Source of the DNA: Patescibacteria group bacterium | GTDB taxonomy: Bacteria > Patescibacteriota > Minisyncoccia > Phycocordibacterales > SIBU01 | NCBI GenBank assembly: GCA_040390045.1 | Contig: JAZJZC010000001.1 | Coordinates: 108,005 to 172,004, forward strand | Length of the DNA stretch: 64,000 nt | Direction of reading: 5' to 3' | Part shown: in pieces, positions 4,129-52,724 of the stretch | Layout: each line of letters opens with the position of its first letter | Numbering within the stretch: position 1 is the stretch's first letter | Notes under the pieces: model-generated | Database searches by the model: none | Seen by the model: only the letters and a program-made list of their open reading frames with translations | What the model was told of the DNA's origin: nothing | Program-made: the position numbers and the translations under genes

Positions 4129-4929
4129 TTGCACATTACACATATCTCTATGAAAAATCTGATCCTGAAGCTGGCGTTCAGCTTCCTCGCCCTCACCGCA
4201 ACCTTCACCAGCGTCCATGCGGGCTTCCGAGCTCCAGTCTGGAATGACCGATGCTACACCTGTCACGGCGGCACGCCAAGCATCTGGCCCGGAGCGCCGG
4301 GGAGTGGTTGTGGAGGCCTCGCGTACGCGATCGCCTGCGGGTTCGTCAAACCCGTCACAGCGCCTCCGGCATGCTCTAACTGCGCCGTGGTTACGGTCTG
4401 CGATCCCCCACTATCGGCACCGGTCTATTCGCCGGCTGGAGGACCGGATTGCGCCCCATCGTTATCGGCGCCAGTCTATTCACCGGCAGGTGGAGTAATC
4501 TGTTACCCCTCGTTGTCGGCTCCGGTCTACAGCGCACAGACAAATGTCTGCTGTGGCGAGCCACTGTCCTCGCCGACATACACTGCGGATACAAACACCT
4601 GCTGTGGAGGGTCATTATCAGCACCGGTGTACACCGCCAACGTGGTTCCGTGCGCGGTGGTTGTGACTCCCCCGCCACCTCAAGCCAAGCGGCCGGTTTT
4701 GGGCCTAGTATTTGACTACACCGGTCAATACATCCAGGTCAAGATCTCCTTGAAAAACGGAGACCCGAATGCGAAGTATTCGCTCGAGGCGGCGGCGGTC
4801 ACTGGAGGACAATGGGGAGTGGTTCCCGGCCAGAAAATATCGGCCAACGGAAATGGGGTCGGAGAGGTGAAGTTCCTCTACAACTCCACCTTTCCCTTCG
4901 CTCTCTTCAGGGCGAGATTGGATCAGTGA
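4129..4929 (+). CDS. Secreted Cys-rich repeat protein (3x PSLSAPVYSPAGG; CC pairs; one CYTCH motif).
   Basis: Signal peptide MKNLILKLAFSFLALTATFTSVHA. The repeated S-L-S-A-P-V-Y motifs resemble the LSSPTY units of the divergent neighbour gene. GC-rich (about 60%). Confidence 0.5.
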   Translation: MHITHISMKNLILKLAFSFLALTATFTSVHAGFRAPVWNDRCYTCHGGTPSIWPGAPGSGCGGLAYAIACGFVKPVTAPPACSNCAVVTVCDPPLSAPVYSPAGGPDCAPSLSAPVYSPAGGVICYPSLSAPVYSAQTNVCCGEPLSSPTYTADTNTCCGGSLSAPVYTANVVPCAVVVTPPPPQAKRPVLGLVFDYTGQYIQVKISLKNGDPNAKYSLEAAAVTGGQWGVVPGQKISANGNGVGEVKFLYNSTFPFALFRARLDQ

Positions 4930-5761: not shown

Positions 5762-6125
5762 TATATTTTAATTGATTAATTGAAAACTAATAATTTGTAT
5801 TGATACCGAGCGACCTTTATTATTTTTTATGAATGGTTACATTATATATTGTCCATTACAGATAACAAGTGGGGTGTGGATAGTGGCGCTCGGATTGTTC
5901 TTTTCGCTAAAGCGCTTCGTAATCCTCGAAAATCAAGTCGGTGGTCTTTACGTAAAACAAAAAACTCGCTCGAGGACTCGCTCAAACAATTTCATTTTCC
6001 TAACCATCTCGTGATTTTTTACGGCTACTACGCTAACCCGCTCAAAGAACTATCCTCACTTGGATACCGAGATAGGAATCTCGGTAGGAAAACAGGGCTG
6101 GAAATTCAAATAGAGACTAATTCAG

Positions 6126-10278: not shown

Positions 10279-10333
10279 TGTTCCACTGTTATAATTTTTA
10301 TACTAGCTCCAACGTCCATGTAAATATAGCATA

Positions 10334-10858
10334 TTATCGTATAAAAATTAAGCCGTAGTGGTGCTCCCCTGCTGAAATTTCCCGCTGGAAAACAAATCCG
10401 GCCTTTTCAAAAAGCGCCCGAGCCATGTCAGAGGAAAAAACGTGTTCCTTTTGCGGGCCCATGCCACCAAACGACTCCTTCCAATCAACAACGAGGACAC
10501 GACCTTTTGGTTTTAAAATTCTTTTTACTTCAAATGGGAAATCGGTTTTGTGTTCTAACTGAAAAAGCGTATTGCATACCAACACGTCGTCCACAGAAGA
10601 ATCTGCCAATCGTGTACCACCAAGCTTTTCGACATTACCCAAAAGCGCTTCTACATTTGTGAGACTACTTCGTCGCGCCTCGTTTTTAAGTTTTTCCAAT
10701 AAGTCTTTTAAAACGTCCACAGCGTAGACCTTGCCTTTGTCGCCTACTGCTCGTGCGGCAGCCATAGTATAAAAACCGGCACCCGAGCCGAGGTCGGCTA
10801 CGGAAGTTCCGGGTTCAAGTCTCAATTGCTCTATATTTTTTTGTGGGTCAGAGAACAA
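10334..10858 (-). CDS. Class I SAM-dependent methyltransferase.
   Basis: Motif I VADLGSGAGFYT and motif II-like VYAVDV. Confidence 0.65.
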   Translation of the reverse strand: MFSDPQKNIEQLRLEPGTSVADLGSGAGFYTMAAARAVGDKGKVYAVDVLKDLLEKLKNEARRSSLTNVEALLGNVEKLGGTRLADSSVDDVLVCNTLFQLEHKTDFPFEVKRILKPKGRVLVVDWKESFGGMGPQKEHVFSSDMARALFEKAGFVFQREISAGEHHYGLIFIR

Positions 10859-10941: not shown

Positions 10942-11658
10942 TTATTTGCCGATTTTAAGTTCACCAAACAACCGGTACATCCCGATAAGTTCTTTCGTCA
11001 CAATAGCAGGGATTTTTTTCAGATAAAAAATATTGGTTTTTCCGCTCTGGCGCCTAAAATGATTAACTGGCACCTCGATTATTTTTGCGCCCGCAAGGTT
11101 TACTCGTATCACAAACTCAGCATTAAAAAACTGAAGATACGATACTTTTTGAGCAACGTCGTCCAAAAAACTTTTTTTAATAAGTCTAAAACCAGTATCC
11201 ATGTCCTCAAAAGAAACCTTGAATATCCTGCGTAACAAAAAATTATATCCTTTTGAGAGTACTGATCTTAGCGCACCGTCCTTTCTGTCGATTTTCTTTC
11301 CTAGAATAACATCATAGCGATCAGCGTACTCCCATAATTTCCAGAAATCTTTTGGGTCAAATTGGCTATCAGAATCAACGAGAAAAACCCACTCATACCG
11401 AGGGTATTTCAAAGAATCTTTAATGGCTTGAAGATACCCCTTTCTCTTTTCACTTAAGTATACTCGTATCGATAGTTCACTCTCCAAATCTTTAAGTATC
11501 CGTTTGGTGTCATCCGTACTTCCATCCTCCACGGCAATTATTTCAAAATTAAGTTTACCTTTTAGTTCGTTGTAATATGAATGAATTGTTTTAGCAATTA
11601 TGTACTCTTCATTGTATACAGGAAAAACAAATGATACGCTTCTGGTTTGTAAATTCAT
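10942..11658 (-). CDS. Family 2 glycosyltransferase (Dpm1/GtrB-like).
   Basis: IIAVEDGSTDDT (DxD region) and VDSDSQ, a typical GT-A fold. Confidence 0.7.
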   Translation of the reverse strand: MNLQTRSVSFVFPVYNEEYIIAKTIHSYYNELKGKLNFEIIAVEDGSTDDTKRILKDLESELSIRVYLSEKRKGYLQAIKDSLKYPRYEWVFLVDSDSQFDPKDFWKLWEYADRYDVILGKKIDRKDGALRSVLSKGYNFLLRRIFKVSFEDMDTGFRLIKKSFLDDVAQKVSYLQFFNAEFVIRVNLAGAKIIEVPVNHFRRQSGKTNIFYLKKIPAIVTKELIGMYRLFGELKIGK

Positions 11659-19747: not shown

Positions 19748-19790
19748 TGCAAAATCAGGAAAACTTTTAACTTGAGAAACGCTCCGGTTA

Positions 19791-19818
19791 TTGCCATTGG
19801 AGCGTTTCTCTGTATAAT
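19791..19818 (+). promoter_or_regulatory. Putative sigma70-type promoter for rpsA, overlapped by an inverted repeat.
   Basis: TTGCCA, 16-nt spacer, extended -10 TGTATAAT. The inverted repeat is gagaaacgctcc...ggagcgtttctc. Confidence 0.4.
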
Positions 19819-20052
19819 ACCCCCATGCCTGTTCGCCAGATTGCGGATGCATAATTGAGAACTAATTAAATAGCCTCCAGATGCGAGGCGCCAGCGAGGA
19901 TTGCGACCAAAATGTATTCATATACATTGCGGGAGCAAACGGAGCTGGCAACAAAGCAGATGGGGTTATTTTATTAGTTCTTGGGCATTTAATAGAAAGA
20001 GTGTGAGCTAACCTTAGACAAAGTGTCTGAGCCTCGCATTCACCATTAAAAA

Positions 20053-39864: not shown

Positions 39865-41475
39865 CTAGTACACGTCCTCCTGCTTCTCCTTCAAAAAGGA
39901 CACGAAGGCGTCTGAAAATTGGAGCAGAAGTTTGAACGGTGTTTCGATAATAAAATCGAGAACGAAGGCGAATAAATTGATTGAAGAAAATTTTCGAGAA
40001 AGCCACTTGCCGGCTTGGACAATTGGGAGGGCGAAGAGATTAAACATCATAGTGACAATGCGATCTTCCTCAACAGACACTTTCCATTTGTTGGCGCTAT
40101 GGCGAATTCGCAGGGCAAAATAACTAACGAGGGTTAAGAATGAGAGAAACAATAAAATACTCACAATGCTCCAATTAAATTTATTGAGCACAAAGACAAT
40201 GAAACCGAATACGATCAAAAACAAAACCGCGTACATCATGAGGAAGAATGAATAAATCACACCGACGCCTTTGTCTCTCACTTTTATGATTTTAATATTT
40301 TCGCCCGCGATAACATCCCCCACCCCGTGGATTATGGCGCTGGTATTTTTATCTCCCAACGGACGAACAGAAATAGTCATGAACAACAAAAGGGCTGGGT
40401 GGAAAAGAACGTTTGTGGCAATCGGGGCGTACTCGATTCCATGTTCAAAATACCATTGGTACGGCAACTCGATAGCCAGAGCTAAAAGAATTTTGGTAGT
40501 TAAAATAAAAAACACCGCGCGCACTGCGCTCGCGCGCGCTTTCTTGTATTGTTTTAAATAATTTTTTTCCAAAAATTCCCGACTAAAGTGAGCTAACGTT
40601 GCACTATCAATAAACACTCTTTCGGATTCTGCCCCGTAAGCTCTGACCACTTCACGAATGACAGAAAAATAAATGGCGTAATTATTTAATCTAGGCAAAA
40701 GTTTGAAACTGAGCGGATGTTTTAAAGACGCGTGAATGCTGTGCCAAATGGCTGGACAATTTTCCGCAATGTTTTTAATGGCAACATCACTTTCAAGATT
40801 TGGCCATTCTGGAGGAAGGTATCGCAACCAAAATTTATAAAACAAGGTTTCGTCGTCAACGTGGAGTAATCCTCGATAACAGGCAATGGCAACCTGAGAT
40901 TCCAATTCTTCTTCGGAAACTGAGGATCCAACCTTGATAGAATCTTTCACCGTGTCAAAAAAAGCGTCGGCTACAAAATCATCTTCGTTGTTGGGATAAA
41001 AAAAAGCTTCGATCTCACTCGCCATGAGACTGACAATTATTTTCTGGGATCGTGAGGGAGTAAAACTACTTCGTGGTAGAAAATTTTCAATTTTTTTGTA
41101 CTTCCGGATAATTTTTTCCACGTCAACCGCCACCATTTCAGGAATGGAGTTGTTCAACAAATATCGTCCGGCAATAAGTTCTTGGATTAGAGAAAGTCCA
41201 ATTCCCGTACCACCTTCAAAAATAACTTTTCTTTTTATAATTCTCTCGATAGCACTCCGGCGGATATGTCGTTCATCTTTGTAGTCCACCAAATAGCGGA
41301 GCTTTTCATAGGCAGCGCCAGCTTTTTCGGTCAGCTTGTGAACGTTTATCAGAGTGTCGTTTGGAGAATGGGGTATGATCCCCTTCTGAGTCTTCAGCTT
41401 CGTAATCAACGTCTCTATTGGCCTTGAAATCATCGGATTATTATGCCAGATTTTAAAGCAATTTGCTAATTGCAA
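39865..41475 (-). CDS. Hypothetical protein with an N-terminal soluble domain and a C-terminal polytopic membrane domain.
   Basis: 536-aa ORF. The start is possibly at MISRPIETL. No motif recognised. Confidence 0.4.
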   Translation of the reverse strand: MQLANCFKIWHNNPMISRPIETLITKLKTQKGIIPHSPNDTLINVHKLTEKAGAAYEKLRYLVDYKDERHIRRSAIERIIKRKVIFEGGTGIGLSLIQELIAGRYLLNNSIPEMVAVDVEKIIRKYKKIENFLPRSSFTPSRSQKIIVSLMASEIEAFFYPNNEDDFVADAFFDTVKDSIKVGSSVSEEELESQVAIACYRGLLHVDDETLFYKFWLRYLPPEWPNLESDVAIKNIAENCPAIWHSIHASLKHPLSFKLLPRLNNYAIYFSVIREVVRAYGAESERVFIDSATLAHFSREFLEKNYLKQYKKARASAVRAVFFILTTKILLALAIELPYQWYFEHGIEYAPIATNVLFHPALLLFMTISVRPLGDKNTSAIIHGVGDVIAGENIKIIKVRDKGVGVIYSFFLMMYAVLFLIVFGFIVFVLNKFNWSIVSILLFLSFLTLVSYFALRIRHSANKWKVSVEEDRIVTMMFNLFALPIVQAGKWLSRKFSSINLFAFVLDFIIETPFKLLLQFSDAFVSFLKEKQEDVY

Positions 41476-41550
41476 ATACGAAATACAAATTGGTACGAAT
41501 ATACAAATTACAGCATTTGTACTTTTGTATTGATTTGTATTTCGTATTTA
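41473..41550. repeat. TACGAAAT-family repeat cluster with an 18-bp inverted pair.
   Basis: caaatacgaaatacaaat ... atttgtatttcgtattta. Confidence 0.55.
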
Positions 41551-41786: not shown

Positions 41787-42113
41787 TTAGAAATTATTTC
41801 ACTTTTTCCTAAACTTTGCTATCATAACGAAGGTTTTAAAAAACCAACATTCCCCGGCCCGCCCGTACCGACACGGCATGTTCGGGCAGGTGGCGCAGTG
41901 TGGCGTGAGCTTGGGGTGGGACCCAAGCGCAAGACCGGAGCGTGACGACGCGAGGAGGGCGAGCAGTAGCGAGTGTCGTGAGACTTCGCGGAATTCGCTA
42001 GCAAGCGAATATCCGTGATGAGCCTGTTAAACGGTTAAAAAATTCATCTATTTTAAACCTTTCTTCTGTTTACGAAATTTTTGCAAACAGATTGAGTTTT
42101 AAAACTCAGACAT

Positions 42114-42188
42114 TCCCCGGTGGCGCAGTGGTAGCGCAGTCGCCTGTTAAGCGATTGGTCGTAGGTTCGAATCCTACCCGGGGAGCCA
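42114..42188 (+). tRNA. tRNA-Asn (anticodon GTT), CCA encoded.
   Basis: Cloverleaf drawn by hand. Acceptor tccccgg/ccgggga, D-arm gcgc-agtggta-gcgc, anticodon stem gtcgc/gcgat with loop cTGTTaa, T-arm gtagg-ttcgaat-cctac, discriminator G, CCA. Confidence 0.85.
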
Positions 42189-43685
42189 AATAGGACTGTC
42201 AGCTAGTTCTAGGACTAGATTGAACGGAGAACGCAAGGTAAACCCTAGCGTTTTTTCGTTTACAGTCGGGTTCTGAAGTATGAAGTTAAGAAAGGCCCTT
42301 TGCTCGGCTGTTTCAGAACCCTCGAAGATTTGTCTTGCACGGCGGGCAACAGAAAGGACAGTGGCCACAGTAGTCTGATACTCGTAGTCGGCTTTTGTAT
42401 GTTCCTCTAGTTCGATGTTAAGAAGCTGCAACTTGTCCGCATACTCTTGATGCTTTCTGTCATAGGTTTCCTTAGTAATACTCTGGTCAAGGAAGGCCTC
42501 TAGTAATCTGTCATCCTTCATTTTGATTTGCTCGTACTCACTGCGGATGCGCTTAATCTGGGCCTTATGAAAGACAATTTCGGTTTCGGTGCTCTTCCGC
42601 AGTTCATCCACCAGCTCGCTCTGTACCTCGTCTGTAATGCCCTCAAACCGCTCCAGTACCTCGTATACAGGCTTGAGCAAGTCCTTTTCAGGTACATACA
42701 CTCTCTTGCAGATACCCTTAGCGTTGGTACAGGAATAATAGGTAAAAGTCAGCCCGCTTTTCTTGGTCTTGGTTTCGCCGCTCATAGAGCAACCACAGTT
42801 TTGACACTTCAGCAGACCCTTAAATATAAAATCTTTGGAGCGACCCATATAAGGCGACACTCGACGCTTCAAACGTATTTCTTGGCACTTATCAAAGAGT
42901 TCTTTATCAACCAAGCGCGGATATTTATGAGGATAGGAACCATACTTTTTCGACATAGCGATGCCACAATAAAAAGTATCCTTGAGGATATTTTCAACAC
43001 CACTCTTCGAGAGTTTGTTACCCTTGAGCGTTCGTAAACCAAGCTCGGTCATTTTGATACGGATAGTTTCAAGCGAGTGGTTTCCTGTCGCGTATAGCTC
43101 AAACATCTTTTGAATGAGATGTCCTCTTTCGGGGTCTATAATTATGTCCTTTCGTAATCTTTTTTCTACATCCAAAGACACATTCAAATAACCCAAACGA
43201 ACACTGCCCGTCCACTCACCACTTCTTCGTTTTTGTTCAAAAGCTCTTTTGACGTTGTCGCCGATTGCATCAGAGTAATACTTGGCCAAACCTAAGCTCA
43301 TACCAAATTGAAACTTCTCAACCGCAGACATCTGATTATTTATAACTTGCCCATCAGATACAAAGTGAAGCTCTATTTTGTCTGCTACCGCCATCTCGTA
43401 GAGGGTGCCAACCCTTTTATCAAAAACGCTTCTTGAAAGGCGGTCTACCTTATCAAAACAAACGGCAACTTTTTCTTTTTTCGCTACCTCTTCAACAGAC
43501 TCAACTAACTTATCAAACTCATCTCTCTTATCTTTGTACGCACTTTCGTCAAAGCTATACTTTTCTATAATCGTAAAGCCTTTCTTAGCACAATAATCGT
43601 TTATGCGCTTATCCTGCGCTGGCAAAGAATTGCCCGCTTCTTTTTGTTCCTCTGTTGATACTCGTGAGACGATTATTGCTTTCAT
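42174..43685 (-). CDS. Large serine recombinase (integrase).
   Basis: N-terminal resolvase domain MKAIIVSRVSTEEQ with the catalytic Ser, a recombinase domain, a zinc-ribbon region (CQNCGC...C) and a C-terminal coiled-coil. 503 aa. Confidence 0.8.
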   Translation of the reverse strand: MKAIIVSRVSTEEQKEAGNSLPAQDKRINDYCAKKGFTIIEKYSFDESAYKDKRDEFDKLVESVEEVAKKEKVAVCFDKVDRLSRSVFDKRVGTLYEMAVADKIELHFVSDGQVINNQMSAVEKFQFGMSLGLAKYYSDAIGDNVKRAFEQKRRSGEWTGSVRLGYLNVSLDVEKRLRKDIIIDPERGHLIQKMFELYATGNHSLETIRIKMTELGLRTLKGNKLSKSGVENILKDTFYCGIAMSKKYGSYPHKYPRLVDKELFDKCQEIRLKRRVSPYMGRSKDFIFKGLLKCQNCGCSMSGETKTKKSGLTFTYYSCTNAKGICKRVYVPEKDLLKPVYEVLERFEGITDEVQSELVDELRKSTETEIVFHKAQIKRIRSEYEQIKMKDDRLLEAFLDQSITKETYDRKHQEYADKLQLLNIELEEHTKADYEYQTTVATVLSVARRARQIFEGSETAEQRAFLNFILQNPTVNEKTLGFTLRSPFNLVLELADSPIWLPG

Positions 43686-43686
43686 A

Positions 43687-44454
43687 TTATTCTTTCGCTT
43701 TTGAGACGTAGTCTACAATTTTATCCCAATCCAACTGGTCTTTTGTGTAGAACAGCTCAATTAAATCTTTCGTCATTTCGTTGATTTTCTTTACGTAGGT
43801 TTCTTTGAAAGTATCGTCTCGTTTCTTCACTTCCTTATCGAGCGGCTTAATCAAGTTTCGATAAAGGTCTTTATCACCAGAAATTAATTCCCAAAAGTTT
43901 TGCCCGCAGAGTTTGGTGTAGTCAAGCTCACTATCTACCTTATGCTTTTTAAGAGGCACGTTATCTTTCCCATAAATACACCCGTTCACACAAACCATTT
44001 CTTGGGTCTTGCCTTCTTCGCGTAGGATACGCCGCGCTTCCTTAAGATTGCTTCTCATACCACTAATCTGGTCAGCGTTTCCCCAATTTGGGCCTGATTT
44101 TATGCCAACAATGTAGAGTTTGTTATCTCTTTCAAAGATTAAGTCCACACTCTTAAACTTATTCTCTTCAGCTTTTAGGCCCTTAAAAACAGTATGATTG
44201 ATATTGATAGCCAGATTCTCTAGCAGGTCTCCAAAAATTGTTTCCTCTTGTGAGGATAGAAACGCGTTTAATATATCGTTTACTAAGTCGCCAGCCGTTT
44301 GTATATTCTTGGCCTTAAATAGGTAGGGATTTTTTCTACGCATCACATCCTTAAGTTTTATGCTCTTCAGCTTCTCTATGCGTTTATCATAGAAAGGTTG
44401 AATCACATCTGATGCTACAAACTTATCCAATTCTTCGTAATTAATTTTTTTCAT
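43687..44454 (-). CDS. Putative type II restriction endonuclease, partner of the adjacent methyltransferase.
   Basis: No clear family match. It is tightly coupled to the methyltransferase gene (2-nt spacing). VDLIFERDNKLYIVGIKSG is a possible PD-(D/E)xK-like segment. Confidence 0.35.
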   Translation of the reverse strand: MKKINYEELDKFVASDVIQPFYDKRIEKLKSIKLKDVMRRKNPYLFKAKNIQTAGDLVNDILNAFLSSQEETIFGDLLENLAININHTVFKGLKAEENKFKSVDLIFERDNKLYIVGIKSGPNWGNADQISGMRSNLKEARRILREEGKTQEMVCVNGCIYGKDNVPLKKHKVDSELDYTKLCGQNFWELISGDKDLYRNLIKPLDKEVKKRDDTFKETYVKKINEMTKDLIELFYTKDQLDWDKIVDYVSKAKE

Positions 44455-44455
44455 A

Positions 44456-45328
44456 TTATTTTTGTGATTCTTGAAAGTTAGTAATTGATAATTCGTAGTA
44501 TTCAGGGAGTATCTCTATACCGATGGAACTTCGCCCTAATTGACCAGCAACAAGAGAGGTAGTGCCAGACCCTAAAAATGGGTCAAGCACGGTATCACCT
44601 GGTTTAGTAAAAAGTTTAATAAACCATTCGGGCAAGGATGCAGGAAAAGCCGCGCTATGGTTTTTATTTCCGCTTTCTGTCGCCATACTTACAACATTAG
44701 TCGGGTATGCCATATCCCGTCCGACCCAACTAGATACATTTTTTCCAAACCCGCTTCCGACTTTTGAATTATCTCTTCGCTTGTCAGTCTCACTTAAGTT
44801 TTTTAAGCGAGTTTTAGCCCAATCTCCCATTGGAACCATAACTTCATCTTGGTACATATTAAAGCTCTTATCCTTATTGAACTGCAACAATCGCTCCCAA
44901 GCATCTCGAAACCTGTTCGGCCATTTACCAGGGAAGCAGTTTTTCTTATGCCAGATAAACTCTTCAGTCCAAAGCCAGCCGTGCTTTCTCATTTCGATAA
45001 TTAACTCCATTACATACGTATGGCGCTCTCCGTTTGAAACCTTTTCTTTTATATTCAAAATAAACGTACCGTCTTTTTTAAGTACCCTCAATAACTCTTT
45101 TGATATTGGAGTAAACCACTCTACATATTTCTCTGGCTTTATACCGCCGTAAGTCTTGGCTCTCTGGTCTGCATAGGGAGGAGAAGTGACAATCAAGTCC
45201 ACTGAATTATCTGGCAATTCTTTGAGTGCCTCGACACAATCACCATTAATAAATCTTGCCTCAACAGATTTATCATTCGCAAAAAGCGTATTTGATTTTA
45301 TTACTTTTGCTTTCATATCTTTTTGCAT
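44456..45328 (-). CDS. DNA methyltransferase (N4-cytosine or N6-adenine, beta class).
   Basis: Motif IV DLIVTSPPY comes before motif I DPFLGSGTT. Confidence 0.8.
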   Translation of the reverse strand: MQKDMKAKVIKSNTLFANDKSVEARFINGDCVEALKELPDNSVDLIVTSPPYADQRAKTYGGIKPEKYVEWFTPISKELLRVLKKDGTFILNIKEKVSNGERHTYVMELIIEMRKHGWLWTEEFIWHKKNCFPGKWPNRFRDAWERLLQFNKDKSFNMYQDEVMVPMGDWAKTRLKNLSETDKRRDNSKVGSGFGKNVSSWVGRDMAYPTNVVSMATESGNKNHSAAFPASLPEWFIKLFTKPGDTVLDPFLGSGTTSLVAGQLGRSSIGIEILPEYYELSITNFQESQK

Positions 45329-45498
45329 TTCTTAAGAAAGGAATTGAACTCCTCTTTATCAATACGAAACTCTTTGCCAATCTTGTAGGCTTGTAACCGA
45401 CCTGCTTTTATATAGCGGTAAATTGTCATAATGTTTACCTCTAGTATCGTTGCCAGGTCTTCCGCTTTATAAAATGGTTTGTCTTTTTTTGTGTCCAT
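45313..45498 (-). CDS. Excisionase/AlpA-like HTH DNA-binding protein.
   Basis: 61 aa. LATILEVNIMTIYRYIKAGRLQAYKIGKEFRI is an excisionase-family HTH. Confidence 0.6.
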   Translation of the reverse strand: MDTKKDKPFYKAEDLATILEVNIMTIYRYIKAGRLQAYKIGKEFRIDKEEFNSFLKKCKKI

Positions 45499-45535
45499 AA
45501 TTACCTAATTATTATACTTTACTTTGCTTTACATA

Positions 45536-46638
45536 TCAATTTGGCACCTGTGGATAATCCCCATACTTATACGTCTTAAACTCATTAAGCTTAGTGTCTA
45601 TTTGCATAACCCAATTCCTAATTCCATTCTTAGTAACAAACTCGCTAACCAGCTTTAAGTCATTGGCAATTCGGTACCAGGTTCGCTCTCCTGATTTTTT
45701 AGAGACTACCGAACGCAGCTCTCTTACTCCATCTTTCGCAAGAAGTAATAATCCTGCGAGATAGATTGCTTGCTTTGGCTTTATATTTTTCTGTTCCATA
45801 AAAATGCTTTGCAAAATATCTTTGTTACTTATGGAAATGGATAGTAGAGCACTGTTTCCTTCTTTGATAACTGCTTGCCAATAATGCGTCACTACCGCCT
45901 TACTCAATTTTGAGCTAAAGACATCTTGGAAAGTTGGATTTTGAGAATAGCCTAACTTCTTAAGTACGCTGTTCATTTTCTGTTTACGAACTAGCCGAAC
46001 TTCAAAACGGATTATTTCTGGCAACCTCTTAACACCTGAAAGGATGCTTCTCTGGTAATAGGTCTGGTCTCTATCAATAGCTCTTTTCTCGCTGGCGAGT
46101 ATGTCTGCGACCTTGTCATAGATAATGAACTCGTGAGATGCGGTATGCGCATACAAGCTTTGGCCGTCATTGGTATAGCGTGAGCGGGTAAAATCAAAAC
46201 CTTTCTAAGATTTACTTTATTTATTTCACTGATTAAATAATTTGTCGTATAGCCATCTTCTAGGTGGATATTCTTTGAGAAGTGCACTGAACTTACTACT
46301 GCATTTTTGATACTCTCTTCGGAGACAATGAGTCCCATTGTTTTAAGACGTTCTTGTAATGTACTGACTGCTTTAGGAAAATCAGCATCTTCTAATTCGT
46401 CCAGGTTATTAAGAAAGAGAAGTTTGGAAACTGAAAACTCTATCCTTACGTTTGCGTTCTGCTTAAACCACTTGCCGTAACTTGTAAGCCGTGGAAAGTA
46501 GTAGCCAGTTTTCAAATCGCTTTTAGAGGGATTCTTTATGTACCTAGAATAGCGCTCGGTTCGTGATTGTAAGTCCCAATCATCCGCGATATTTTGTATC
46601 TCGCTCCAGGGAATTGAAAGGCAGATAGAATCAATCAT
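45536..46638 (-). pseudogene. Rep_trans-like replication initiation protein interrupted by a frameshift (two overlapping ORFs, 46012..46638 and 45536..46156).
   Basis: The downstream part contains HEFIIYDK...RFEVRL, recalled from Rep_trans-type initiators. The two ORFs overlap by 145 nt in different frames. Confidence 0.4.
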
Positions 46639-47107
46639 TTTTCTCTCGTTGCTTCTTATAAAGATGCGGATTTATTCGTTTATCAACTTTTATGAGCAGC
46701 GCAAAAAAGCCGACAAGGTTGCGCTTGTCTTCAGGCGTTAATTTCTCCTGATTCTTTTTTAATTTTTCTTGCTTTTGTACGCTCAACATAAAAGCCCGCT
46801 CTTGGCTTGGCAGGTTTCCATTGGCGTGGCGACCCGCGAAGCCAAGAAAGGGCTTGCGTACATTTTGCCAATGAAATTACCGCCGTTATTTAAGAACGGA
46901 CTTTTGTTTGATAAACAAAAAATTGCCCGTACAATCGCTATCCTCTACTGGGCAGTTGGCAGATATTTCTGCGCTACTTCAGCAATTCGGATACGATTAT
47001 ATTGGGCAATTACGGTTGAGATGGTAGGCGCGGTTTTCTCTCCGCGGCTATGTAATTGATTACTTTAAGTGTAGCGAGACGAAACGGGCGCGTCAATAAA
47101 AAGCGCT

Positions 47108-47168
47108 GTTATACAGTGACCAAGCGCGCCATACTCTGTTATCCAGGATTAAAGTCGGTTATCCACAG
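47108..47168. promoter_or_regulatory. Cluster of DnaA-box-like 9-mers.
   Basis: TGTTATACA at 47108, TGTTATCCA at 47137 and an exact TTATCCACA at 47159-47167. They lie in the divergent region between the Rep-like gene and the AbiEii gene. Confidence 0.4.
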
Positions 47169-47192
47169 AAAGAAAAAACCAGGCCCAAAAAA

Positions 47193-48650
47193 TTGCTATC
47201 ACTGACAGAAATCGCTACAATTCACTTGACAATGATTTACAAAGAAGAAATCGAAGCAAAAGCAAAAGAGTTTGAAATCCATCCCTCGAATGTCGAAAGG
47301 GACTATGTTTTTGGATGGCTGCTTTTTGGCATCTTCACCGCGAGTGGACTGAAGGATAGAATCTTTCTCAAGGGCGGAAATGCCCTCCGAAAAGGCTACT
47401 TTGAGAATACTCGCTTTTCGAGCGACTTGGATTTTGGAATACCTGACGACATAAGCCAGGAAGAATTGCTGTCCGAAATAAATAAAGTCTGCGAGCTTGC
47501 TCAAGAGAAGTCGGGAGTGGTCTTTGTCAAAGATGACAACAAAGTTGAAGAAAAGTTTACCGCCAGTGAAGCGCCACTGCCTGACCTAAAGGTCTATGAG
47601 GTGCGGGTTTACTTCAAAGGTTTTAATGGAGAGTCCGACCATATAAAAATAAGAATCTCAATGGACGTCACGCGTTTCGATAAAGTTCTTCTACCTCTTC
47701 AGACTGTGAAGTTGATACATCCTTATTCAGATGCGGCAGACTTAGTTTGTGACATTCAGTGTATGAAGCTCGAAGAGATTATCGCTACAAAACTGAAATG
47801 CCTTATACAACGACAGCACGCGCCTGACCTTTTTGACTACGCTCACTCCATCAAACTTTTAGGCGGTACTTTGAACAAGGAAGAGGTGGTGGAGACCCTC
47901 GTCAAGAAAACAATTTTCAATCGTAACCCTTTCATCCTCAAAGGCATTTTGAACGGCACAGCGTTTACCTATTTCAGAACAGAGTGGGCTAAATCCGTTA
48001 TCTGCGCGAAACAACTTGCTATGAATGTTGAGGATGCCATCGCGGCTTTCATTGCCGACCTCGATATTCTTTTTGCGAACTACACCGATAACGGATTTGC
48101 TCAATTCGTCTACTTCAGTCCTGAAGTGCGAGCAAAGATTATGCACGCGGGGCGCACGCAGACGCTAATGAAAGTTCGGTATAAGGGCTATGACAGAATC
48201 ATTGAACCGTATTCTCTAAAATATCTTGAAAAGAAAAGTGGTGAGGCCCGTGAGTATTTCTATCTTTATAATTGTAGTGGTGGCGAGAGCAAACCAGATA
48301 CTCGTTGCTTTCTTCCTGAACGTATTGAGTCCATCGAAAACACCGAAGAGAAGTTTACGCCTCGGTTTCAAATTGAATTGTCAAAAGCAGGAGAGTTACC
48401 AGAAAATCGCTATCTCTTTGACCCAAACAGACCTACTCCTGCTCCACGGCCGCGTGTTTCGAGAAGTACCAGTCCAAGAGCGCCGCGTGCGCGCGGTTTT
48501 TCTAGTGGAATAAAGTACATATATAAATGCACTTCTTGCGGCAAGACATCCACGAAAACTACGATGGATGGAAATCTGCGTGCTCATAAGGCCCCTGGTG
48601 GTTATGCTTGTGGCGGCAGATTTGGTTATTACGTTCGGACAAAGTACTAA
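47193..48650 (+). CDS. AbiEii/DUF1814-type nucleotidyltransferase fused to a WYL-like domain and a C-terminal Zn-ribbon-like tail.
   Basis: N-terminal FLKGGNALRKGYFENTRFSSDLDFG, the AbiEii signature. Middle region KVRYKGYDRIIEPYSLKY...EYFYLYNC...RCFLPERIESIE, WYL-domain-like. C-terminal CTSCGK...H...C. Confidence 0.6.
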   Translation: MLSLTEIATIHLTMIYKEEIEAKAKEFEIHPSNVERDYVFGWLLFGIFTASGLKDRIFLKGGNALRKGYFENTRFSSDLDFGIPDDISQEELLSEINKVCELAQEKSGVVFVKDDNKVEEKFTASEAPLPDLKVYEVRVYFKGFNGESDHIKIRISMDVTRFDKVLLPLQTVKLIHPYSDAADLVCDIQCMKLEEIIATKLKCLIQRQHAPDLFDYAHSIKLLGGTLNKEEVVETLVKKTIFNRNPFILKGILNGTAFTYFRTEWAKSVICAKQLAMNVEDAIAAFIADLDILFANYTDNGFAQFVYFSPEVRAKIMHAGRTQTLMKVRYKGYDRIIEPYSLKYLEKKSGEAREYFYLYNCSGGESKPDTRCFLPERIESIENTEEKFTPRFQIELSKAGELPENRYLFDPNRPTPAPRPRVSRSTSPRAPRARGFSSGIKYIYKCTSCGKTSTKTTMDGNLRAHKAPGGYACGGRFGYYVRTKY

Positions 48651-49014
48651 AAAGTTTTCCCTCAAAAAAGCTCAACTGGGTTAGGGTGTCCCCCCAGCGC
48701 GAAAAAAGTCGAAACGGAAAATACCCACTACCCGAAAAGGCAAAACGAAGAGGGTTACACCCCTTTGGTATAACTCTGCATAACCTTGTTATGCTCTGTT
48801 ATACCGTGCGTAAGTAGCATAGCCAGATACTACCTGTGCTATGGCGGGTTAAAGTATCCGACAGGCATAGCACACCCTCACTTTACCCACACCCCGAAAA
48901 TACTTCGTATAGAACGCTACGTACTGGTCTATGCAAAGGATAGAATACCGCTAAACTGAAGTTCACTCTTGATACTTGCCCAGTTGAGAGTTCTGAACCT
49001 GTCCACGAGTGGGA

Positions 49015-49048
49015 GCAAAACAAACGCCGAAAGGCGTTTTTGTTTTGC
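49015..49048. repeat. Strong GAAA-tetraloop hairpin in the element-end noncoding region.
   Basis: gcaaaacaaacgcc-gaaa-ggcgtttttgttttgc. Confidence 0.5.
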
Positions 49049-49219
49049 TCACCGGAGGAAGCGCAAATCGCTTCCGTGTAGGATTCGAAAACCTTCTCCC
49101 GTATCCGCCGCGGCGGATGGGAAAGGTGTACCGTCTACAGGTGTCTATCACAAACGATAGACCTGACCCTGTAAGGTTCGAAATTCCTACCCACAACCTC
49201 TTTATGCTACAATTTTTAA

Positions 49220-49702
49220 ATGAAAACGTATCTAATCGAAGGTTTGTCTGGTACCGGTAAAACAACAGTCTGCGCAGAATTAAATAAAAGGAATTACACA
49301 GCCGTAGATGCCGATGAGGTATTTGCTCATTTTGTTGACCCTAAAACTGGTTTGCATAGTGATGAAAAGACTACACACTGGATGTGGGAGGAAGAAAAAT
49401 TTAATACTATCGTTAAACAGGAAAGGGACGGACAATTATTTGTGTGTGGAGGCGCCACTAATCAGGAAAATTTTAAACATCATTTTGATAAAATTTTTAC
49501 TCTCCATGTTGATGATAACGTTCTGAAAGATAGGCTGTTACATAGAACTAACAATGACTACGGTAAGGACCCGAAGGAATTAGAACAACAACTAGAGTGG
49601 AACAAAGGTGCTGTACAGCATTCAAGACACAGAGGAACAACTTTGATCGACGCAACCAAGCCAATAAGTGACGTGGTGGATGAAATACTAAAAAATCTTT
49701 AA
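49220..49702 (+). CDS. P-loop nucleotide/nucleoside kinase-like protein.
   Basis: Walker A GLSGTGKTT at the N-terminus. 160 aa. Confidence 0.5.
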   Translation: MKTYLIEGLSGTGKTTVCAELNKRNYTAVDADEVFAHFVDPKTGLHSDEKTTHWMWEEEKFNTIVKQERDGQLFVCGGATNQENFKHHFDKIFTLHVDDNVLKDRLLHRTNNDYGKDPKELEQQLEWNKGAVQHSRHRGTTLIDATKPISDVVDEILKNL

Positions 49703-49768
49703 ATTAGATTTGGAAACTTAGTTTCCAAAATACTAGCTGACCCTATTCTCCTTGTATCCCCTTGTGAT

Positions 49769-50350
49769 ATGATTTTTATTATGTCTGAAAATCCATCACC
49801 ACTTGAAAAACCTCCTCAAGAAAATATACCCTATCCTGAAATGATAGCTGGACAAAAGCTAGAGACATTAATGAGCCCTGAGTTCAGAACATTTGCTGTG
49901 CGATTTGTAAATTTCCAACAATACAAAGAATATCTTGAAGCGGGCATGGGAGATTCCGGCGGTCGTGGGTTTCAAGCCTACGGAGAAGTTGTAGGTGTTA
50001 TGGACCAATCATTTCCTGAATTTTTAAAGGAATCCTCAAAAGATTGGGGTGAATCCATTCATGAATATACAGACTGGCCTCAATCTCGTGTTGGCATAAA
50101 AGTGCATGAACAGCTAACAGAAATTTTTAGAAATGCTCACACTGAAGCACTGAAATCGGTCGGTAGCAAGGATGAATTGAGAGAAAGATCGCTTGAAATA
50201 TTTCGTGATATTATTTTAAAAAAAGCAAGATCGATTAGAGAAAAAAAGGAAAGTCCTGGATATGATGGTGCGGATGAACGTGGAGCTTTAAACAGAAATC
50301 CTCCTGACTCTTCTTTAGAAAGTAGTCGCTGTATCAAAACTAACGAGTAA
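49769..50350 (+). CDS. Hypothetical protein.
   Basis: 193-aa ORF in a same-strand run. No motif recognised. Confidence 0.4.
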   Translation: MIFIMSENPSPLEKPPQENIPYPEMIAGQKLETLMSPEFRTFAVRFVNFQQYKEYLEAGMGDSGGRGFQAYGEVVGVMDQSFPEFLKESSKDWGESIHEYTDWPQSRVGIKVHEQLTEIFRNAHTEALKSVGSKDELRERSLEIFRDIILKKARSIREKKESPGYDGADERGALNRNPPDSSLESSRCIKTNE

Positions 50351-50363
50351 TGATTCTGGATGG

Positions 50364-50822
50364 TTGTATGATGGTAGGAATCTTAATGAATTCTTAGAGG
50401 GCGAAAAGACAAACTGGGATTGGCTATATAAAAAGCGTGACCCTAAGCCCCCTTTTCCCGAAGAAATGTTGCGGACAATATACAAATTTGTACACACACC
50501 TAGGGATATTACCCCTGCGGAATTAAAGGTTGTTTTTACCTATCTTTCAGATCTTAATATCGAGGGTGAACTTCAATATGACGTGGCAGTAATTTTTGAT
50601 CCAAGTGTTATGAAAGATTTTTCCAAGTCAGAACATTCCGCAAATCGTTTCTGGTCAGATGTAATTCCCAGAGGAGGAGAACAAAAAATCATGGGTGCTG
50701 TAGCCCTTCGGTCAGATCGTGAACTTGTAGAAAAAATTATTCACACCCCCAACAACAACACAAATCTATCCCATCCTGTGTTTGATTCCAAAGGAAACAT
50801 TAGATATCCCCTTGGGAAGTAA
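50364..50822 (+). CDS. Hypothetical protein.
   Basis: 152-aa ORF, 14 nt after the previous gene. Confidence 0.4.
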   Translation: MYDGRNLNEFLEGEKTNWDWLYKKRDPKPPFPEEMLRTIYKFVHTPRDITPAELKVVFTYLSDLNIEGELQYDVAVIFDPSVMKDFSKSEHSANRFWSDVIPRGGEQKIMGAVALRSDRELVEKIIHTPNNNTNLSHPVFDSKGNIRYPLGK

Positions 50823-50977
50823 TCTATTTACAAAGGTTCGACCTTTGTACTTGGAATTCCCACTCAAATTGACAAAACAACCTTTACACTCTAACCTCAA
50901 ACAAGTTGTTAGGGCTGTTCCCTAACACTTTCAACGCTCAGCAGAGCATAAAAGAGCAGTAGCTCTAGAAAGGTAGT

Positions 50978-51493
50978 ATGAAAAGCGTGGTTTCGCAGTA
51001 TCGCAATAGTTACATTCCAACAAATGACGAAGGTCGAGTCCTCGGGAAATTTTTCAAAGAATTTCCGTGGCTTTGGGCCTTATCATCTGACTGGTCCGGT
51101 CTCCTACTCATAAAAGTGCACAGGGCAGATCCTGGAATCGTTGAGGAGAACTTAGGGTGCCCATCATTCGCTTCGACGGCTGGGATTGCAACCACAACCT
51201 TTTGGCTCAAGGCTTGGGGTCGTGATTGTAACCTCAACTTGTGGGAATCTGTTAAACGGATTGAAACGGACGATTGGAATCGGGAAAAGGGCGAGAATCT
51301 GACGTATCTGGTCCGCAAAGCGTTTCGTCAGTTGCCTCCGGAATGTGAACTTGAGTTTCTAATCAGTAAGAAAGAATTCAGGGGGTATACCTCATCTGCA
51401 ATGCATGACGGTCCATGCCCTAGCCATGAGTACAACATCTTCAAGCCACCTCTGGGAGACAAAGGTTTTCGCGGTTTTGCTGGTGTGAAGTAG
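50978..51493 (+). CDS. Hypothetical protein.
   Basis: 171-aa ORF. The upstream region shares a CGACCTTTGTA...TTGACA motif with the next gene. Confidence 0.4.
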   Translation: MKSVVSQYRNSYIPTNDEGRVLGKFFKEFPWLWALSSDWSGLLLIKVHRADPGIVEENLGCPSFASTAGIATTTFWLKAWGRDCNLNLWESVKRIETDDWNREKGENLTYLVRKAFRQLPPECELEFLISKKEFRGYTSSAMHDGPCPSHEYNIFKPPLGDKGFRGFAGVK

Positions 51494-51605
51494 AGTCCGC
51501 GCTTCAAAATTTTCAATCCGTCTTACGTTTAAATAGTAGACGGGTTTTTCTTTTTTAAAAACTTAAAGCGTTCAACTTACAGAAGTGCGACCTTTGTATA
51601 TAAAT

Positions 51606-51634
51606 TTGACAAAGAACCATATCTCTGTTATATT
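51606..51634 (+). promoter_or_regulatory. Putative sigma70 promoter TTGACA-17-TATATT, preceded by the conserved CGACCTTTGTA motif.
   Basis: The boxes have exact spacing. The ATG follows 28 nt downstream. Confidence 0.45.
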
Positions 51635-51661
51635 ACCTGTAGCAGTAGAAAAATTTTAACC

Positions 51662-51904
51662 ATGAACGCTCAACTTCTTGTGGTAACGCAAACCGTACTC
51701 GAGAACTTCTCGAATACCGATTTGGCCGCTTTAAACACCCAAGTCGGGTTTTACGGGAATATGGCAAAGGGTTGTCCTGGCTACGCTCAAGCGTTTGAGA
51801 CTGGACTCATCAAGGAAAGCGGCGAGCCCGCTGACCTCGACACACTTCGGGAAGCTTGCAGGCTTGAGGTCGTCCGCCGGGACGAAGCAGGAACATTCCA
51901 ATAA
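51662..51904 (+). CDS. Small hypothetical protein (80 aa).
   Basis: The ORF follows a good promoter. No motif recognised. Confidence 0.35.
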   Translation: MNAQLLVVTQTVLENFSNTDLAALNTQVGFYGNMAKGCPGYAQAFETGLIKESGEPADLDTLREACRLEVVRRDEAGTFQ

Positions 51905-52100
51905 ATCCCCTCCTCGTCTCATCAGCCGAGGAAACACCCAAGCGCGACCGCCCAACTCAAGTTTCACTTGGGATGGGCGGTTTTCTTTTTTAGAAAATCT
52001 AAGTCCCCTGACTTGTAAGTAATGACATTCTTGCCACTATAAACTTGTAAATGCTATTATCATATATGTAGCCTGAATTTATTAACTAACATTAAAGTTT

Positions 52101-52724
52101 ATGAAAGTGAAAATAATGCCAGTGATTTCAAGTGCTATTGTATTTTCTAGTCTGATATTCGGAATAGCGTCAGCTCAAAGTGTTGCCGCAATCAATATTC
52201 ACGCGAATGCAAACGTTGAACTAGAAACAAAAGGTAACGCCACAAGCACTAACGCAAAAAACGGTAACGCAACGAGCACGGATGCAAACAGCCAAGGTCA
52301 ACTTACTGCCGAATCACACCGTAGTACAGTTGCGTCGTTTGTGGAATCACTTCTCAGTGTCGCCAATCGCGAAGGTGGAATCGGAGCCCAAGTACGAGTA
52401 ATTGCCCAAGCACAAAACGATTCAGCGAGCACCACTGCAGAAGCCATCACAAAGGTGGAGAGCCGAAACAGTCTTAAGACATTTTTGATTGGTAGTGACT
52501 ACAAAAATTTAGGCCAACTTCGTAGCGAAATTGTTACCACTCAAAACAACATAGACCAACTAAAAAAACTAGAAGCGCAAGCAACGAGTGATGCAGACAA
52601 AGCAGAACTGACAGTTCAGATCAAAGCCCTTGAGGATTCTCAGGTAAAAGTGGAAGCATTTGTTAAGGCGCATGAAAGTTCATTCAGCCTCTTTGGCTGG
52701 TTTGTAAAGCTATTCGTAAAATAA
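52101..52724 (+). CDS. Secreted hypothetical protein (signal peptide, coiled-coil).
   Basis: Signal peptide MKVKIMPVISSAIVFSSLIFGIASAQS, then an Ala/Gln/Glu-rich helical region. Confidence 0.45.
   Translation: MKVKIMPVISSAIVFSSLIFGIASAQSVAAINIHANANVELETKGNATSTNAKNGNATSTDANSQGQLTAESHRSTVASFVESLLSVANREGGIGAQVRVIAQAQNDSASTTAEAITKVESRNSLKTFLIGSDYKNLGQLRSEIVTTQNNIDQLKKLEAQATSDADKAELTVQIKALEDSQVKVEAFVKAHESSFSLFGWFVKLFVK

Follow-up and report, generated by a model that had tools for sequence, protein, structure and literature searches.

The window analyzed here is a 64,000-nucleotide stretch of the genome of a Patescibacteria group bacterium (assembly GCA_040390045.1, contig JAZJZC010000001.1), in which positions 42185–49014 (6830 bp) are very probably an integrated mobile element whose integrase is a large serine recombinase (LSR). 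The region adjoins a tRNA-Asn(GTT) gene, the single tRNA found by ARAGORN and Rfam, and carries, in order from the tRNA, the LSR gene, a restriction-modification (RM) pair, a gene for a small helix-turn-helix (HTH) protein of the excisionase family (hereafter Xis), a disrupted rep-like gene, a conserved open reading frame (ORF) of 52 codons (orf52) and, on the opposite strand, an AbiEii gene followed by noncoding DNA (Table 1). A preliminary description, made from the sequence alone, had proposed an integrative element at the 3′ end of this tRNA gene, and the serine recombinase, the conserved junction motifs and the approximately 60 related loci presented below bear it out. In the literature library that was searched, no paper describing this family of LSR elements was found, nor any described integrative element for the Patescibacteria, or candidate phyla radiation (CPR); the window holds an LSR element of a known kind, from a CPR family that is large and apparently undescribed.

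Integrase, core genes and cargo

The LSR contains a resolvase catalytic domain (PF00239, E 9e-20, residues 3–158) with the motif SRVSTEEQ near its N-terminus, a Recombinase domain (PF07508, E 4e-15) and a zinc ribbon (PF13408, E 5e-10), and it is 100% identical to a protein of a metagenome-assembled genome labelled ‘Patescibacteria group bacterium’. The gene ends inside the last 15 nt of tRNA-Asn, as had been proposed: its TAG stop (42174–42176) lies within the T-stem/acceptor region of the tRNA, the two genes overlap by 15 nt, and the tRNA 3′ end CTACCCGGGGAGCCA, read in reverse complement, supplies the final codons (W-L-P-G-stop). The integrase frame would cross the junction between element and chromosome, stopping within the tRNA when the element is integrated and running on into the P arm of the other element end in an excised circle, where its predicted length is 528 aa.

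The cargo consists, by homology, of anti-phage genes, as in most of the sampled relatives. The endonuclease and methyltransferase genes are adjacent on the same strand, separated by a 1-nt gap, and are interpreted by homology as a type II RM pair, in agreement with the preliminary description; the order of the methyltransferase motifs (SPPY near the N-terminus, FLGSGT near the C-terminus) is that of the beta class. The gene previously described as AbiEii-WYL is an AbiEii gene according to Pfam and PADLOC, with a 240-aa C-terminal extension of its product, in which no WYL domain was matched by hidden Markov model (HMM) search even at E 10. No ORF for an AbiEi partner was present, and the 400 nt upstream hold just a 96-aa ORF without a match. 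A cluster of DnaA boxes had also been reported at this position. One perfect DnaA-type box, TTATCCACA, occurs at 47159 and a second copy, GTTATCCA, about 20 nt upstream, just 5′ of the AbiEii start (47134–47167); the whole window contains 14 DnaA boxes with at most one mismatch, and their density before AbiEii is not above that of the window. The GTTATCCA pair may be an operator of the AbiEii cargo gene.

Among the core genes, the 61-aa protein described earlier as an excisionase-type HTH proved to match HTH_17 and TIGR01764, and homologues with 54–81% identity occupy the same position in 40 related loci. It is a candidate directionality factor of the integrase. The orf52 reading frame, located upstream of rep, gave tblastn matches at the same position in 25 related loci. 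The two overlapping window ORFs of the rep-like gene correspond to one ORF of 368–386 aa in 35 relatives, and the frame is lost in the window just after ...NKVNLRK, near 46200, which agrees with the earlier report of a frameshift; an independent frameshift lies a few codons away in locus L062. The assignment to Rep_trans, also made earlier, is less firm, since the matches are sub-threshold: PF02486 was matched by four of the 35 full-length relatives with 13–14 bits (best E 0.0013, cutoff 29.6). These weak matches are colinear and cover two conserved motifs, YDKxxD and ILRFE. Published Rep_trans/MOBT proteins carry a motif III YxKxxE, with the catalytic tyrosine on a beta strand, and a motif IV W/LxRxE (PMC5714925). 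In the family studied here, the invariant YDKxxD falls on a predicted strand (177–182) and ILRFE on another (217–225), with motif III ending in D instead of E and with low model confidence in this part; the AlphaFold model has a pLDDT of 70.8, falling below 50 around the putative active site. Foldseek searches of the model against the PDB gave no match at E ≤0.001, and a profile search against PDB sequences gave none, while the fold matches in BFVD were to unnamed viral proteins (E down to 2.6e-6) and one homologue is named ‘Replication initiation protein’ in UniRef. Taken as a whole, the protein is a probable rolling-circle initiator or relaxase and possibly a distant relative of Rep_trans or MOBT.

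Table 1. Features of the element and its junctions (positions in the window; a slash within a sequence, here and in the text, marks a point of exchange or breakage)
Feature	Position	Strand	Evidence or remark
tRNA-Asn(GTT)	42114–42188	+	ARAGORN; Rfam 72 bits
B half-site of attB (T-loop to acceptor end of tRNA-Asn)	~42163–42184	+	Convergent tRNA adjoins LSR in relatives
Large serine recombinase (integrase), 503 aa	42174–43685	-	Resolvase, Recombinase, Zn_ribbon_recom domains
Proposed crossover dinucleotide GA at attL (tRNA positions 71–72)	42183–42184		Inferred from symmetry
P′ arm, inside LSR 3′ coding end	42185–42231		Motif (GC)CAgTTAGGACnnTCAGCTAGTTCTAGnAC..TTGAACGGAGAA conserved 3′ of tRNA end in most loci
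Ultra-conserved cis site in LSR gene (codons 400–410)	42459–42488	-	GACCAGAGT/ATTACTAAGGAAACCTATGAC
Type II restriction endonuclease, EcoO109I family	43687–44454	-	RE_EcoO109I, PF14511, E 3e-74
Beta-class N6_N4 methyltransferase	44456–45328	-	PF01555 E 6e-46; PADLOC MTase_II E 2e-51
Excisionase-family HTH, 61 aa, family core gene	45313–45498	-	HTH_17 / TIGR01764
Rep-like core gene, two overlapping ORFs	45536–46638	-	Frameshift near 46200; no Pfam match for window ORFs
orf52, 52-aa conserved core ORF	46631–46789	-	tblastn
AbiEii nucleotidyltransferase with C-terminal extension and zinc ribbon, 485 aa	47193–48650	+	PF08843 E 4e-23; PADLOC E 6e-49
Element-internal noncoding DNA, cargo-specific	48651–48968		No similarity to any related locus
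P arm, attR junction, proposed GA at 49013–49014	48969–49016	+	Motif TTAATnnnnGnCCAATTnnnAGTTCTGAACnnGTCCACnAnnGGGAGC
Terminator hairpin, host side (B′)	49017–49048	+	Terminator-like (hairpin 49022–49039), directly 3′ of P arm
Host-side structured repeat unit, outside element	49049–49195	+	RNA fold z-score -4.6

Related loci, attachment sites and element ends

A scan of one genome per species recovered 59 related genome loci (designated by L numbers), almost all of them in CPR lineages, including Saccharibacteria, Nomurabacteria, Kaiserbacteria, Gracilibacteria, Moranbacteria, Paceibacteria and others. LSR homologues numbered more than 2000, with the best 120 cluster representatives 72–81% identical. 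In approximately 30 of the 59 genome loci, a convergent tRNA gene directly adjoins the 3′ end of the LSR gene or overlaps with it; the tRNA is mostly tRNA-Asn, other targets being tRNA-Gln (L008, L019, L039, L041), tRNA-Asp (L025) and tRNA-Arg (L048). The LSR, the HTH_17 protein, the rep-like gene and orf52 keep the same order in about 40 loci, and the layout of the family can be described as P arm, cargo 1, orf52, Rep, Xis, cargo 2, LSR, P′ arm and tRNA, with a size of 6.5–10.5 kb where both ends are visible. Cargo 2 mostly encodes type II or III RM systems or an Mrr-like nuclease, and once a D-Ala-D-Ala ligase, while cargo 1 is variable (e.g., an AAA_21 ATPase, a PIN-TPR protein, DUF3800 or unknown proteins); the restriction endonuclease and AbiEii genes of the window recur in none of the related loci. 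Compared across CPR lineages, the LSR is 75–80% identical and Xis up to 81%, whereas the adjacent housekeeping proteins Fmt and HPF (hibernation factor) reach 40–51% and 38–52%, respectively. The greater likeness of the element proteins across CPR classes points to horizontal spread of the elements.

The attachment (att) sites of serine integrases share only a 2-nt core, and no long direct repeat is expected of them. For this reason, a missing direct repeat would not refute the element, contrary to what the preliminary description had held; its reasoning, based on a long direct repeat and a rebuilt tRNA 3′ half, fits tyrosine integrases and not serine integrases. The exhaustive alignment that it had proposed revealed no direct repeat of the tRNA 3′ half or acceptor end beyond 8 nt in the window, and the best match to the 3′ half was an inverted one (15/16) at 49074–49089.

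The ends are instead marked by two conserved arms. The P arm, 48 nt in length, lies at the element end distal to the LSR, in constant tRNA-sense orientation, and terminates in GGAGC as tRNA-Asn does; its motif was found in about 30 genome loci and in 17 attP-like junctions of metagenomes. The P′ arm follows GGAGC on the tRNA side, where it reads CAgTTAGGACnnTCAGCTAGTTCTAG... in the related loci. The attP configuration, with the P and P′ arms joined at GGAGC/CA, is seen in L056 and in 17 metagenome contigs that matched the junction pattern, none of them from the species of the window. The distance from the distal TTC motif to AGC is 23 nt in 43 P arms vs. 18 nt in the B arms of the tRNAs, a shift of 5 bp. 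In characterized serine-integrase sites, the motif bound by the second DNA-binding domain (DBD2) is likewise displaced, its distance from the centre being 4–5 bp shorter in attB than in attP (bioRxiv 10.1101/2025.01.03.631226), and the TTC–AGC difference is this known shift of the outer motif. The block identical in attL and attR is GGAGC at the tRNA-Asn loci and CAGC at the tRNA-Gln locus L008, and the reconstructed attP contains the dyad GTCC-N8-GA-N8-GGAC. From this dyad and from the geometry of the P arm and the tRNA we infer a crossover at the GA of GG-GA-GC, i.e., at 42183–42184 and 49013–49014, which gives the element limits stated above. The predicted attP is CTTGCCCAGTTGAGAGTTCTGAACCTGTCCACGAGTGGGA/GCCAAATAGGACTGTCAGCTAGTTCTAGG, with the junction CCACGAGTGGGAGCCAAATAGGACTG, and the predicted attB is GGTCGTAGGTTCGAATCCTACCCGGGGA/GCAAAACAAACGCCGAAAGGCG, with the junction CCTACCCGGGGAGCAAAACAAACGCC; the empty site would read ...CCTACCCGGGGA/GCAAAACAAACGCCGAAAGGCG, that is, the tRNA end followed by its terminator.

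According to this model, one attB half-site would be formed by the T-loop, the T-stem and the 3′ strand of the acceptor of tRNA-Asn, and the cut would be made at GA, immediately 5′ of the discriminator base. The element would then supply just GCCA (G73 and CCA) together with a new 3′ trailer. Of the tRNA 3′ end that had been described as reconstituted by the element, only these last 4 nt and the trailer are element-derived under the inferred crossover. The native terminator hairpin of tRNA-Asn would have been displaced by 6.8 kb. The GAAA-tetraloop hairpin noted earlier is present and scores as terminator-like, and we interpret it as this displaced terminator since its position matches that of the terminator after the P arms of relatives, most of which, among the loci shown, have a hairpin with a T-run directly 3′ of the P arm. 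Locus L054 comes closest to an empty site: the same terminator is found 3′ of its unoccupied tRNA-Asn end, and a comparison of the 133 nt that follow its P arm with the 133 nt that follow this tRNA end gives 97% identity, the GGAGC-ending unit being continued by P′ in one copy and by the terminator in the other. In L008, whose LSR is 76% identical, the P-arm core is GCCAGC and matches its tRNA-Gln; such covariation of the P-arm core with the acceptor end suggests target switching. In one subfamily (L019, L022, L028, L034, L050), the P′ arm itself folds into a terminator hairpin just 3′ of the tRNA, e.g., GGACGATCAG...CTGGTCGTTTTT, and in at least L019 the LSR ORF stops before the tRNA and not inside it.

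The noncoding tail (48651–49219), given earlier as one block of 570 bp, is composite. Its hairpin, the 10-bp inverted pair and both T-arm copies are all present, but the element part ends at the P arm: 318 nt of element DNA are followed by the P arm and then by the host-side terminator and a structured unit. The 318 nt (DNA fold z-score -2.2) have no similarity in any related locus, and the Rfam search of the tail gave no match. The second arm of the 10-bp pair (48671/48979) lies inside the P arm; as a family feature the pair was discarded, being absent in about 30 relatives, and is probably due to chance. The two T-arm-like copies (49074–49089 and 49174–49192) together form the closing stem of the structured unit. 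Homologous units occupy the same host-side position in L037 (~2795–2941), L029 (~5817–5963), L051 (~1200–1346) and L055 (two copies, ~10290–10426 and ~4638–4774) and lie upstream of a tRNA-Asn in L017 (~19750–19860); they share the motifs AGGATTCGAArACCTT and rAAGGTGTAC, with a few compensatory changes. Comparable units in L004, L010, L040, L054 and L055 end in an exact 15–25-nt copy of the tRNA 3′ end, and in L054 and L055 this tRNA-like end carries an integrated mini-element. With its end occupied in these two loci, the unit is best understood as a secondary landing site on the host side (a secondary attB) and not as an element end; the 3′ end of the window unit is degenerate (CCTACCCACAACC).

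These observations also bear on the right boundary, for which the preliminary description had considered an attR at 49174–49192 or an extension through genes of unknown function to about 53 kb. A larger element of this kind would account for the direct T-arm-like copy GGTTCGAAATTCCTACCC at 49174–49192, for the exact 15–19-nt copies of the tRNA 3′ end that lie a few hundred nucleotides past the P arm in L004, L010 and L040, and for the ORFs without known function at 49.2–52.7 kb. What the window copy has in common with the tRNA, however, is just TCCTACCC, with no acceptor end; its position is past the conserved P arm and the hairpin of the terminator, some 170 nt outside the element, and it is a stem strand of a unit that recurs on the host side elsewhere and is itself a target. 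No protein of the 49.2–53 kb block is encoded in any related element. We consider the larger element very unlikely on these grounds. The distal copies in L004, L010 and L040 had also been tried as attR repeats with a crossover in the T-loop, a model that was dropped since the conserved P arm lies nearer to the LSR.

Several points weigh against an integrated mobile element with these limits. The rep gene is frameshifted, and there is no contrast in GC content (0.413 in the element vs. 0.427 in the window). No element-free strain of the species was found, and neither an empty site nor an excised circle was recovered for the window element; the sole other contig with these genes (Logan sample SRR26324623, the same sample) is 100% identical to the window. 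Look-ups of the endonuclease, AAA_18 and fmt products returned only contigs of this sample, with the island-bearing contig 100% identical to the window, exact-protein look-ups of the DUF167 and HPF proteins returned no record, and the genome scan contained no relatives of the flanking 536-aa protein. The attP-like junctions elsewhere lie mostly beside truncated LSR genes, with none demonstrated as a circle and no terminal overlaps found. The crossover dinucleotide is placed by symmetry, so that AG or GC, one or two positions downstream, could also be the site of exchange, and the B′ side of the related loci has no conserved half-site.

Part of this evidence would also suit a fixed fossil, which arrived by LSR integration, is now immobile in the lineage and has been retained for its defence genes. 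The rep gene is frameshifted here and intact in 35 relatives, no presence/absence polymorphism was found, and decayed copies are common in the family: the LSR has internal deletions in L037 and L051 and is split in L040, and C-terminal stubs are numerous. On the other hand, neither the LSR (503 aa, three domains) nor the Xis gene is disrupted, both the P and the P′ arm are close to the family consensus, excision and integration could proceed without rep, and the absence of polymorphism weighs little when a single sample of the organism is available. We regard a fossil as unlikely, if a good deal less so than a larger element, and retain the integrated mobile element as the preferred reading. 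Given the frameshift, the window copy is probably non-autonomous, though its integrase, its Xis gene and both att arms appear intact.

A prophage or phage satellite, in place of a plasmid-like integrative element, was also considered, as temperate phages typically encode serine integrases and HTH proteins of the excisionase type, PHROG matches label the HTH protein as an excisionase, and the best fold matches of the Rep model are the viral proteins mentioned above. No capsid, portal, terminase or tail genes were identified in the window element or the sampled relatives, however, a collection of viral contigs gave only LSRs of 26–27% identity and no attP-type junction, and the elements are merely 6.5–10.5 kb long. 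A phage origin is thus the least probable of the alternatives, and the plasmid-like integrative element is preferred.

The chromosomal surroundings comprise housekeeping genes on the left (def, fmt, the hibernation factor and a DUF167-like ORF) and, on the right, an AAA_18 kinase-like gene from 49220, five ORFs without matches, and then His_Phos_1, speD and argS. The same-strand block formed by the AAA_18 gene and the five ORFs (49220–52724) occurs in none of the related loci. Between the 536-aa ORF and the DUF167-like ORF, a long, near-perfect AT-rich inverted repeat (41474–41550) is probably a bidirectional terminator; upstream of the tRNA, Rfam returned just the tRNA itself and sub-threshold, spurious microRNA-type matches on this AT-rich hairpin. 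A GC-rich stretch of about 240 nt (41858–42095) is located just upstream of tRNA-Asn and is flanked by an imperfect 25-nt duplication (41833–41857 vs. 42096–42120, 84% identical) consisting of the leader and the first 7 nt of the tRNA. This stretch holds the tRNA-like snippets GGTGGCGCAGTG and GCCTGTTAAACGG and a 30-nt motif, CAAGACCGGAGCGTGACGACGCGAGGAGGG, that is also found beside tRNA-Asn in L004 and L058; it had no Rfam match and a fold z-score of just -1.1. In L058, a partial second tRNA-Asn 3′ half with a different T-stem (~11540–11606) is situated directly 3′ of the intact tRNA-Asn and resembles the remnant of a previous event at this site. A unit of 127–133 nt, composed of the terminator and the structured piece, is present on both sides of the mini-element in L054 (8790–10492, 97% identity) and L055 (4638–10426). 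The duplication implies that either of two landing sites can be used and that chromosomes occupied in different ways have recombined.

A conserved site within the integrase gene

The strongest DNA conservation within the LSR gene is found at codons 400–410, where the synonymous-codon entropy of 31 full-length LSR genes is 0.21–0.33 bits vs. about 1.2 elsewhere. The site is kept in LSRs that are only 35–50% identical in this region; L045, without a rep gene in its vicinity, lacks it. Of the LSR gene, just the last ~100 codons remain in most attP-like junctions and in seven genome loci, and most of these stubs begin at the same nucleotide, /ATTACTAAGGA, in codon 403, with a few beginning at codons 410–441. 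The internal LSR deletions of L051 and L037 join codons ~157 or ~312 to the same breakpoint. In total, the codon-403 site is the exact breakpoint of over 20 truncated derivatives. In all loci with the codon-403 breakpoint (L051, L037, L053–L058, L063–L079), the 3′ side alone is ever retained, and the sequence 5′ of the stub breakpoints is unrelated from locus to locus, ending in G-N-G-N. Two simpler explanations were set aside. Recombination by the LSR at pseudo-sites fits poorly, as the fixed part starts with ATTACT instead of a shared dinucleotide followed by GT, and the left partners share only G-N-G-N. A simple insertion into the LSR gene is unlikely, given that no N-terminal LSR halves were found within 10 kb.

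Retention of the 3′ side only would fit a nick confined to one strand, after which rolling-circle replication or transfer terminates at a wrong position. We tentatively propose that the integrase gene contains an origin of rolling-circle replication or transfer, that the invariant CCAGAGT/ATTACTAAGGA is the nick site of Rep, and that the truncated derivatives and the second target complete a self-contained system found across the CPR; we rate this proposal as somewhat less likely than not. The canonical nick site of Rep_trans/MOBT proteins is CT’AA in the loop of a GC-rich hairpin (PMC9371924). The codon-403 site is not of this form, and the candidate nick site CCAGAGT/ATTACTAAGG (CCAGAGTATTACTAAGGACATCTATGAC) contains only a 4-bp mini-palindrome, AGTA-T-TACT.

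In the life cycle that we envisage, excision would require the small excisionase-family HTH protein as directionality factor, and the Rep-like protein would subsequently nick the excised circle and either copy or transfer it. Wrong termination at short look-alike sites of the form G-N-G-N would yield deletion circles, in each of which a 100-codon stub of the integrase gene, attP and the neighbouring cargo would be retained. By re-integrating in trans, such circles would produce non-autonomous mini-elements, tandem arrays and stubs, and the structured repeat unit downstream of tRNA-Asn, with its copy of the tRNA 3′ end, would offer a second landing site in many genomes. More than 20 independent loci show mini-element, tandem-array or stub forms, and L054 looks like such a deletion mini-element after integration.

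Comparison with known systems and significance

When compared to described systems, the closest parallels in gene content are the integrative and mobilizable elements (IMEs) of Firmicutes, some of which are reported to combine a serine integrase with a Rep_trans/MOBT relaxase and to be related to the DNA-processing modules of ICESt3, Tn916 and ICEBs1 (PMC5704250). In such elements, a conserved site is nicked by the Rep_trans/MOBT protein, which can serve rolling-circle replication as well as transfer (PMC9371924, PMC5714925). Like these IMEs, the element described here is small, has variable cargo and combines an integrase, an excisionase-type HTH protein and a Rep_trans-like protein with no transfer apparatus of its own; no domains of a type IV secretion system or coupling protein were detected in the window element or the sampled relatives. 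In contrast to the Firmicutes IMEs, it has a Patescibacteria host, targets a tRNA 3′ end, lacks a coupling protein, encodes a Rep far below the Pfam threshold and carries its candidate nick site, AGT/ATTACT, inside the integrase gene.

Its integrase shares the set of Resolvase, Recombinase and zinc ribbon domains with the LI/A118, SPbeta, Bxb1 and phiC31 integrases, and its sites resemble those of phage serine integrases in their imperfect dyad half-sites, in a distal motif 5 bp closer in attB and in the lack of long identity between attP and attB. Unlike the phage systems, the element is not a phage, its attB is located at the end of a tRNA gene, where the natural T-arm sequence serves as distal motif, and its integrase ORF spans the crossover, so that the C-terminus differs between the integrated and excised forms. 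To our knowledge, characterized serine integrases insert into protein-coding genes. The serine integrase of the phiRv1 type works with an Xis-like directionality factor, an HTH protein of the excisionase family. The element has the same combination, and its small HTH protein would probably control direction likewise; the HTH_17 gene is, unlike that of phiRv1, separated from the integrase gene by cargo. Finally, tRNA islands of tyrosine integrases (Islander type; PMC4383910) also occupy a tRNA 3′ end, leave the tRNA intact and carry accessory or defence cargo. The element differs from these islands in that it encodes no tyrosine recombinase, has no displaced tRNA fragment as a direct repeat (8 nt at best) and supplies only ~4 nt of the tRNA under the inferred crossover.

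The elements represent an abundant mobile family for the poorly known Patescibacteria and their tiny genomes, with attachment sites that can be read from the sequence and a conserved chromosomal target in the end of the tRNA-Asn gene. The integrase and its att sites are a candidate pair for inserting DNA into CPR genomes. For annotation, integrase stubs beside tRNA-Asn are to be treated as derivatives of the element and not called as genes. The conserved site in the integrase gene, together with the precisely truncated derivatives, is open to biochemical test, and if the proposed nick site were true, a self-contained system of integration, nicking and replication would be common across the CPR radiation. 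The family may also be a route by which RM and other candidate defence genes pass between CPR lineages.

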